Part shown: in pieces, positions 35,933 through 37,830 of the stretch | Numbering within the stretch: position 1 is the first letter of the stretch | Layout: each line of letters opens with the position of its first letter | From: a virus | Taxonomy: Monodnaviria > Loebvirae > Hofneiviricota > Faserviricetes > Tubulavirales > Inoviridae | Length of the DNA: 40,286 bases | IMG/VR virus record: IMGVR_UViG_2874968258_000009 | Direction: 5' to 3' (one strand) | Notes under the pieces: generated by a model | The model's input: the letters and a program-made list of their open reading frames with translations, nothing else | Database searches by the model: none | Told to the model about the DNA's origin: nothing | Position numbers and translations under genes: made by a program

Positions 35933-37830
35933 TCACTTACTACCGTATTCTCGGCTTAACCGTCCATGCAACCTCAACACATTGGTTTCAACTGCCGTCA
36001 CCACGTTCTCCGGAAAATCTGTCGGTAATGAAGTCTTCACGTTATCCAGTGCTGCCGGAATCATTCTGGCAAAGTCACTTAGGATTTCATGCATCTGCAC
36101 TTCCGGGAATCTCAGCACCTTTGCTGTCGCCAAAAAATGTCGCGGATAAATTTTATCGATTGCCGTTTTTTTGCCTTTGGATGCGTTAAGCCCCATTGCC
36201 AGTTTGAGATCGCTGATGTTATTCCCGTACCGCCAAGGACCGGAAATGCTGAAATGATGTCGTAAAATGGCGTGAGTCGATAACTGCCGCCAGCCTGAAT
36301 AAATACGGAGAAGTTTTTTGCATGGCCATCCGTTGCGCCAATCAACCACTGGAACACTTGAAACTTCATAAAATCATAGCGATCTTTCAGCGCCTCGCTG
36401 GACCCCATCAAAAACGCCATGATCCGCGCGATGCCTGGGCCTCCATCTGATTCATATTTCACCGATGAAGGTAAACCGAATGTCTGACACATATCCTCCT
36501 GTGGCAAGCGAAGTAAAACCGTTCGCTCAGTATTCCAACGCCTGTCAAAACGTTCGACCGCTAACGCGCGCACCCTTCCCGCTTTAATGATTTCTGCGTC
36601 CGGAACATTCAACCCAAGTTCTTTCGCCAGCAGCAGACAGTAATACTCATTATCAACGCTTTGGCTGAGATCGAGCGTCGCATTGGGCTGCCTGATTTCG
36701 CCAATCGGTAATTTAATGATGTGCGTCGTCGGCGTTATTCCTTTCGGAATGCACCAGTCATTCTTATCCTTAACAGTAATGTTGCCTGTGCCTGTTTCTT
36801 TCATCCCCGCAGTGATAATTCCCGAATCTACTTTACCTTCACGCGAGACATTAAGTTCACCGTCACCAGCATCACCGATATAGATATAGCGGAAAGCTTC
36901 GCCTGTTCCGAGGAAACTCCAATGCCCTTTATCGGTCACGTTGACGACACCGTGGGAACCGTCCTGAACGCCCACCAATGAATATTCTTTGTTATTAATC
37001 AGACCATTATTGGAAATATTGACTGTGCCATTACCGAAATACCCATTATAGAGTCTGCGTACCGTGATGACAGAGTCTTGATCCTGCACATTCAGGGTTC
37101 CGATACCGGTGGCATTGCCACCGATAATCGTATTTTCAGCCGTAATCAGCCCACCCTCGCGAATAGTCGCCTCCCCAGCTCCTTGATTACCAATTTGAAA
37201 TTCAATTGAGGAATCATTATTTTTTATTAGCCACTCGCCACCCTTTTCAACGATAACCTTACCATTACTGTTCGCTTGATATCCTAAAATGGCGACTATT
37301 GAACTCGTGACGTAACCCTTATCCGTAATATTTAATGAGCCCGTACCGTAACTCCCTATTTCGAATAATTCGGTCGTCAGAACAGAGTCTTCTCCCTCAA
37401 CATTGACCGTCCCGACGCCTCCTGTCGAGGAACCTAGTCTTAAATAGCCTCCATCAACGTGACCTTTCTGTTTAATATTCAGCGTCCCCGTTCCGGATTG
37501 ACCCACATTTAAAGGCCTTGCATTATTTCCGCTATCATACAATCGCCAGGTGCCACCCAAAACATTAACGGTACCCTCCGAATCCTCATTAGCGCCAATG
37601 ACGCTGGTAGTAATAGTGGTTAAGTAGGCATTACCGTCAGCCAAAATATTAAGAACTCCAGTGCCATACCAGCCAACCAGGTAGGCATCATAAGCAACAT
37701 CAGTATCAATATTGGTAATCTGACCATTATCAACTTCCAGACTCGCACCAGACGCTGAACCGCTTAGTGCCAGCAAAACACCCAGCGTCAATCTACTGAA
37801 TTTCGTTGTCAGTCCATAGGATTTACGCAA
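35933..37830 (-). pseudogene. hipA: Chimeric ORF: autotransporter-like N-terminal passenger fused in frame to the HipA kinase C-terminal region, with a frameshift near 36220
   Basis: N-terminal ~356 aa: signal peptide plus repetitive Gly/Thr/Asn-rich passenger-like sequence. From NDWCIPKGITPTTH onward the sequence reads as HipA, including the catalytic-loop motif WLIGATDGHAKNFS. The HipA frame breaks after ...VLGGTGI and its C-terminus (ISDLKLAMGLNASKGKK...LSREYGSK) continues in the track ORF 35933-36349. No hipB-like ORF is present. Confidence 0.75.

Follow-up and report, generated by a model that had tools for sequence, protein, structure and literature searches.

Autotransporter and hipA remnants joined in a probable compound pseudogene of Shigella sonnei

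The 40,286-nucleotide stretch held in IMG/VR as the inovirus record IMGVR_UViG_2874968258_000009, here called the window, contains a long open reading frame (ORF) in which the first part of an autotransporter gene runs into the kinase core of the toxin gene hipA. The window is Shigella sonnei chromosome from the replication-terminus region, and its positions 40286..35846 are 100% identical to CP044191.1. The fused ORF is very probably a non-functional compound pseudogene, which we attribute to three independent lesions in the course of ordinary Shigella reductive evolution. The genes, the locus and the decay phenomenon are already well known, and the sequence has been deposited many times as a named protein.

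Two gene remnants in one reading frame

The frame runs from 37830 to 36112 on the minus strand, as do all features of the fusion described below, and comprises 572 codons from an internal TTG, the first possible start in the ORF listing. Depositors' calls of this ORF (36112..37830) vary between 572, 559, 554 and 540 amino acids. Its first part lies in a remnant of an AIDA-type autotransporter gene (ECSE_1600/YneO) at 36763..37845, which corresponds to native codons 29-389 and covers the distal half of the signal peptide and the first part of the passenger with its type V secretion system (T5SS) repeats. Its second part lies in a hipA remnant at 35933..36762, which corresponds to codons 165-440. 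Profile searches bear out the autotransporter-HipA frame proposed in the initial annotation. Residues 1-359 correspond to model positions 34-392 of 1806 in NCBIfam NF011422, the ECSE_1600 family autotransporter (E 1.7e-232), with a score of 774.8 bits that stays below the curated cut-off of 2335; the intact E. coli protein scores 4191. Five repeat stretches match the passenger beta-helix repeats of TIGR04393 (E 1.4e-36). The C-terminal beta-barrel translocator TIGR01414, matched at residues 1346-1806 of the intact autotransporter, has no match in the fused ORF. Pfam HipA_C (PF07804) is found in residues 363-541 (E 2.2e-44; 152 bits versus a cut-off of 30.5) as a partial match covering profile positions 16-174 of 213.

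The HipA part aligns colinearly with K-12 HipA in BLASTP from N165 (NDWCIPKG; ORF residue 357, window position 36762) to I345, with 179 of 181 residues identical. The kinase core had been predicted to start at NDWCIPKG, just after the P-loop, and this is where the alignment begins. The end of HipA is found in an overlapping short ORF of 138 codons (35933..36349), whose last 97 residues correspond to HipA 344-440 in the original hipA frame and are 97% identical to the K-12 protein in BLASTP. The motifs of K181, D309 and D332 are kept in the hipA remnant, with TDGHAKN (D309) at ORF residue 500 and FYDII (D332) at residue 522. The latter two motifs carry the catalytic and Mg-binding aspartates of HipA. 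The N-terminal domain and the P-loop 150-VAGAQEKT-158 with Ser150 are absent from the fused ORF, where everything upstream of N165 is autotransporter sequence and the HipA fragment starts seven residues past the P-loop. This loop is the part of HipA that binds the phosphates of ATP, and its Ser150 is autophosphorylated (PMC6581861).

Kinase cores without the N-terminal subdomain are known from HipT of the HipBST system, a HipA-like protein about 100 residues shorter that is active and paired with HipS, and that keeps the P-loop and the autophosphorylated serines (PMC6581861). The S. sonnei fragment shares with HipT the kinase core and the lack of this subdomain. Unlike HipT, it begins after the P-loop, is frameshifted and has neither HipS nor HipB, and the DNA upstream belongs to the autotransporter, the insertion sequence (IS) IS1 and the lsr genes. 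Because HipT loses only about 100 residues, keeps the P-loop and needs HipS, the S. sonnei HipA fragment is shorter than the minimal known active kinase.

Both halves of the fused ORF are 96-98% identical in DNA to two well-separated E. coli genes. The K-12 order is hipA, hipB, yneO (an autotransporter pseudogene), lsrK, lsrR and then the divergent lsrA, with hipA, hipB and yneO as separate genes; this agrees with the arrangement given in the initial annotation, in which hipB and yneO lie between hipA and the lsr genes. Strain G3X16-2 (locus L003) has a K-12-like order with an intact 1806-amino-acid autotransporter, hipB (L003 15269-15535) and hipA. Among 5,426 complete E. coli genomes, hipBA is present at 80% or more in 4,564. 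Compared with the K-12 hipBA locus, the 3' 830 bp of the window's fusion are orthologous to hipA codons 165-440 and occupy the same place beside dif. The window differs from K-12 in having no hipB, no hipBA promoter and no HipA residues 1-164, and with the frameshift at His346 the locus is no longer a toxin-antitoxin (TA) module. Compared with the ECSE_1600/YneO (YdeK-YdeU) autotransporter, the 5' 1,083 bp represent codons 29-389 with their T5SS/PEP-CTERM repeats. What is missing relative to this protein is the extended signal peptide region (ESPR), the start codon, about 1,400 passenger residues and the whole beta-barrel translocator.

A genuine architecture, in which the N-terminal repeat domain would be natural to a HipA-family protein, has in its favour only that one ORF exists and that some database entries bear the name "hipA-like C-terminal domain protein". 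Neither of the two conditions named in the initial annotation as refuting the chimera holds: the C-terminal half shares 99% identity with K-12 HipA 165-345, and the N-terminal half is a gene of its own in 84% of complete E. coli genomes. A 120-bp probe over each of the two deletion junctions described below was contiguous in none of the 5,426 complete E. coli genomes. None of 185,579 species-representative genomes contains the exact 32-mer that spans the junction of the two genes, which is weak evidence of absence elsewhere, as this null would be expected if GTDB merges Shigella into E. coli. No listed member of the protein cluster outside S. sonnei spans the junction. We regard a natural HipA-family architecture as refuted by the separate genes in K-12 and G3X16-2, the BLASTN colinearity and the null result of the junction probe, and its probability as practically nil.

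Three lesions and the prospects of expression

Lesions and their endpoints were defined by BLASTN and direct sequence inspection, with K-12 and G3X16-2 as references. Deletion 1 joins lsrA-lsrR intergenic DNA to autotransporter codon 29 at 37845..37846 with no microhomology. Relative to K-12 it spans 3,349 bp and comprises lsrR, lsrK and the promoter, ribosome-binding site, start codon and first 28 codons of the autotransporter gene. This loss of lsrR, lsrK and the autotransporter 5' end was absent from the initial annotation. Deletion 2 spans 5,219 bp relative to G3X16-2 (L003 10810-16028) and merged autotransporter codon 390 and hipA codon 165 into a junction codon AAT (Asn) at 36760..36762, at the 2-bp microhomology 'AA'. 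It took the remaining ~1,400 autotransporter codons, the beta-barrel, the hipBA promoter, hipB and hipA codons 1-164. The idea that a single deletion fused the two genes and removed hipB is thereby confirmed, with both endpoints defined. The third lesion is a 1-bp deletion in the hipA His346 codon at 36219..36220, where GGAATACACATC has become GGAATA-ACATC, which is the frameshift that had been suspected near 36220 to disrupt the HipA C-terminus. From this lesion on, the fused ORF no longer reads HipA residues 346-440, which lie in another frame, and it stops at 36112.

Upstream of the fusion, a 71-bp remnant of lsrA-lsrR intergenic DNA (37846..37916) lies between the deletion 1 junction and an IS1 of 768 bp (37917..38684), whose insA/insB genes are on the strand of the fused ORF. 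The 9-bp target duplication CCTTAGGTG flanks IS1 perfectly at 38685-38693 and 37908-37916. Because this duplication is intact, IS1 is a simple insertion and the cause of neither deletion; with the 71 bp that separate it from the deletion 1 junction, we rejected it as the origin of the deletions.

The start of the ORF is not the autotransporter's own start because deletion 1 took the first 28 codons. The native autotransporter N-terminus consists of MNRIYRVIWNCTLQVFQACSELTRRAGK followed by TSTVNLRKS..., and the window retains only the latter portion. The ESPR extension (MNRIYRVIWN...) and the native start codon are absent from the window. Upstream of the TTG, the frame is open for 47 codons and reaches into IS1, and no ATG, GTG or TTG is found there. 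The apparent signal peptide of the fused ORF is the distal, classical half of an ESPR-type signal peptide. The autotransporter-like signal peptide noted initially is thus real as regards its distal half, but it does not mark the native start, as 28 codons and the promoter are deleted.

A scan for the sigma-70 consensus over 35700-38800 returned no promoter-like site on the ORF strand between IS1 and the fused ORF. Upstream, such a site is confined to the terminal promoter region of IS1 itself (38677..38650), and the total of promoter-like sites in the scanned interval equals the shuffled expectation. No Shine-Dalgarno-like purine run precedes any of the three TTG codons taken as starts by depositors, and no RNA family was found by an Rfam scan of 33000-40286 at gathering thresholds. 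Transcription of the fused ORF would be possible only through read-through from IS1. Judged from its sequence, the fused ORF is likely neither expressed nor functional, and its product, even if translated, would lack the parts needed for kinase activity or autotransporter secretion. With neither ESPR nor beta-barrel, the product could not reach surface display. An exported kinase fragment would be periplasmic, away from ATP and from the cytoplasmic target GltX.

Several observations weigh against a dead gene. A co-oriented IS1 86 bp upstream could give weak read-through transcription; the N-terminus MRKSYGLTTKFSRLTLGVLLALSGSASGA still resembles a classical Sec signal peptide; TTG is able to initiate translation; and the 572-codon frame stays open across the sampled S. 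sonnei isolates, which could pass for conservation. However, the open frame is a weak sign of conservation, as S. sonnei is a young clone with little time for further stops to arise. A rival reading is a chimera expressed through IS1 read-through and TTG initiation, yielding a Sec-exported passenger-HipA fragment with new or residual activity. The long frame preserved in all sampled S. sonnei, the co-oriented IS1 with the only upstream promoter-like site, the signal-peptide-like N-terminus and the retained HipA motifs with Lys181, Asp309 and Asp332 are compatible with such a protein. Its expression is contradicted by the lack of a Shine-Dalgarno sequence, native start or promoter, and its activity by the loss of the P-loop, Ser150 and the rest of residues 1-164, as well as by residues 346-440 being out of frame. 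No beta-barrel is left for surface display, and the exported fragment would meet neither ATP nor GltX. Comparable deletions in five other E. coli lineages also speak against it: four of these have direct fusions, none of them in frame, and the fifth, O157:H7, has two separate deletions instead. We consider an expressed chimera very unlikely.

The pseudogene very probably formed from an ancestral neighbourhood in which lsrA, lsrR-lsrK, the autotransporter gene, hipB-hipA and dif followed each other. An illegitimate deletion of 5.2 kb at a 2-bp microhomology linked autotransporter codon 390 to hipA codon 165 and removed hipB and the P-loop in one step. HipA is toxic when unopposed. A deletion removing hipB would thus be viable only if hipA were disabled simultaneously or earlier, and deletion 2 would itself disable hipA. 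A 3.3-kb deletion took lsrR, lsrK and the promoter, start codon and ESPR of the autotransporter, and a 1-bp deletion at His346 frameshifted the HipA C-terminus. The two fragments probably came to lie in phase by accident, for which the prior is 1 in 3, leaving a long ORF to be picked up by gene callers. The initial annotation had described a kinase toxin decaying after the loss of its antitoxin. The kinase gene has indeed decayed, but the order of events was overstated: deletion 2 cost the locus not only hipB but also the hipBA promoter and the N-terminal domain and P-loop of HipA, and so disarmed the toxin as the antitoxin was lost.

Recurrent deletions in E. coli and the S. sonnei allele

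Autotransporter-hipA deletions are not confined to S. sonnei. At least five other E. coli lineages (L002, L009, L010, L011 and L012) carry their own, and the endpoints differ each time. These lineages were found with a probe containing both fragments, including the hipA 3' end, and constitute a biased sample rather than a census. In L003 coordinates, O157:H7 Z1835 and relatives have two separate deletions at 10641-15061 and 15172-15788. Direct autotransporter-to-hipA fusions, all out of frame, are found in the 2017-03-3CC group (11153-16432), AUSMDU00014361 (11270-16199), B1_2 (11156-16541) and C10 (11947-16695). The left endpoints in the five E. coli lineages cluster in a stretch of ~1.3 kb in the autotransporter repeat region (L003 10641-11947), and the Prokaryotic Genome Annotation Pipeline (PGAP) labels the five alleles pseudogene fragments. 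They share with the S. sonnei allele the truncation of the same two genes and the loss of hipB with the 5' part of hipA, and differ from it in retaining lsrR, lsrK and the 5' end of the autotransporter gene. A further allele, L001, has a deletion internal to the autotransporter gene with hipBA intact.

From the coordinates, one of the five direct fusions is in phase, that of S. sonnei, versus a chance expectation of 1 in 3. Because the other direct fusions are all out of frame, the in-frame join in S. sonnei is best read as a chance event. In all six deletion lineages, S. sonnei included, hipB was lost jointly with the hipA 5' end. Such a joint loss would fit toxin-antitoxin logic, as the loss of hipB alone would leave an unopposed toxin. 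The recurrence might not be neutral. Certain lineages, host-restricted pathogens among them, might have come under repeated selection against hipBA, the autotransporter or both; alternatively, the terminus near dif might be a deletion hot-spot. Either way, toxin-antitoxin logic would set which deletions survive, never those of hipB alone. We hold this to be rather doubtful.

In S. sonnei, the identical 572-amino-acid protein is found on 13 contigs, three of which are complete chromosomes. It belongs to a protein cluster of 33 members; the 15 members listed include 11 under the name Shigella sonnei and an E. coli HipA fragment that lacks the junction. Both the junction and the frameshift recur in the S. 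sonnei isolates 3226-85 and 3233-85 and in the three complete genomes, and the S. sonnei variant P0009 carries a further deletion. An 81-bp probe for the frameshift allele was matched over its full length in none of the 5,426 complete E. coli genomes. Genomes with a single lesion were sought in this collection to order the frameshift and deletion 2, but none of the three lesions occurs there, so these genomes do not give the order. The scar appears to be fixed in sampled S. sonnei and species-specific within the collections searched. The E. coli HipA fragment P0010 (GCP85258.1), annotated as 'regulator with hipB', has a different frameshift and enters the same alternative frame ~9 codons later than the S. 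sonnei allele, and for this reason is taken as an independent E. coli hipA frameshift.

The distribution also bears on whether the assembly wrongly joined two loci, given a genome rich in repeats and ISs. Numerous IS1 copies and a tandem repeat of three 9.5-kb units make the region difficult to assemble. Neither junction lies in repeated DNA, though, and identical junctions and frameshift recur in the 13 contigs from independent assemblies, which include short-read contigs besides the three complete chromosomes. A mis-join is scarcely conceivable.

Surroundings of the fusion and implications

The remainder of the window is largely prophage. Three head-to-tail copies of a filamentous (inovirus) prophage occupy positions 7322-35859 with a period of 9,504 bp and are 99.99-100% identical. 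The unit encodes a pII/G2P replication protein, Zot/pI, a secretin/pIV, a helix-turn-helix repressor, a DpnII/MboI-like nuclease and a DUF6953 protein. An intact dif site, GGTGCGCATAATGTATATTATGTTAAAT, lies at 7322-7349 on the minus strand and is the chromosomal integration site of the prophage. Further hybrid dif sites are found at 16839 and 26343, and the array is ended by a hybrid dif, GTGCGCATAATGTA followed by CGACTC..., at 35846..35859 on the minus strand, 74-87 bp downstream of the hipA stop. The initial estimate that the array ends about 70 bp from this stop was close, as the last hybrid dif begins 74 bp and backbone homology ends 87 bp past it. Because the array integrated at dif, the hipA remnant is the last chromosomal gene fragment before dif. 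The array resembles the XerCD-dependent tandem arrays of CTXphi and Ypfphi. Three other complete S. sonnei chromosomes, whose flanks are otherwise identical, lack the array. A match to the prophage unit with at least 80% coverage is found in 87 of the 5,426 complete E. coli genomes, several of them 100% identical, and a megablast search of INPHARED phage records with the unit gave no match.

The proximity to dif raises the possibility that the remnant is kept for its position, with the hipA 3' end serving as a buffer or spacer for dif and deletions stopping inside hipA. In its favour, the last hybrid dif follows 74-87 bp past the hipA stop, all six independent deletions end within hipA and leave 162-1069 bp, and 5,246 of the 5,426 E. 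coli genomes retain some hipBA DNA. The deletion sample was biased, however, since the probe contained the hipA 3' end; some remnants measure only 59 bp, and in 180 genomes nothing matches. A spacer role is most improbable.

On the other side of IS1, decay extends into the lsr genes. The lsrA gene (40286..38685) is split in two ORFs, 38761..38985 and 39192..>40286, and a 10-bp indel in lsrA is polymorphic among S. sonnei genomes. In related complete genomes, only an ORF of 102 amino acids with no Pfam match lies between lsrA and a gene of the mannitol dehydrogenase family, presumably uxaB by the K-12 map. The genes lsrC-G and adjoining genes were probably lost too. On the other side of dif, window positions 1-7321 hold remnants of a yneL/ydeT-type fimbrial operon (PapD_C and usher fragments), which are broken by IS1, IS3-family and IS21-family elements; the IS layout varies among S. 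sonnei genomes.

At least eight independent lsr losses, flanked by IS and phage sequences, have been described in E. coli and Shigella (PMC3595036). The locus shares with these cases of Shigella decay the IS-rich flanks, several deletions and frameshifts in adjoining genes, and an inactivated lsr system. Neither hipA nor the autotransporter is mentioned in that study (PMC3595036), and a literature search on hipA/hipBA, yneO/autotransporter and Shigella pseudogenes found no paper on this fusion.

The fused ORF constitutes an annotation trap, since database entries call it, for example, "HipA protein" or "hipA-like C-terminal domain protein". A survey of toxin-antitoxin systems or autotransporters could thus count a non-existent orphan HipA toxin or adhesin in S. 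sonnei. The joint loss of hipB and the hipA 5' end in six lineages is a natural illustration of how a toxin-antitoxin locus is lost, though one unsurprising to specialists. For the organism, the lesions mean that S. sonnei is without a functional hipBA persistence module, a YneO-type autotransporter and Lsr-mediated autoinducer-2 (AI-2) uptake and regulation, which fits the reductive evolution of Shigella.

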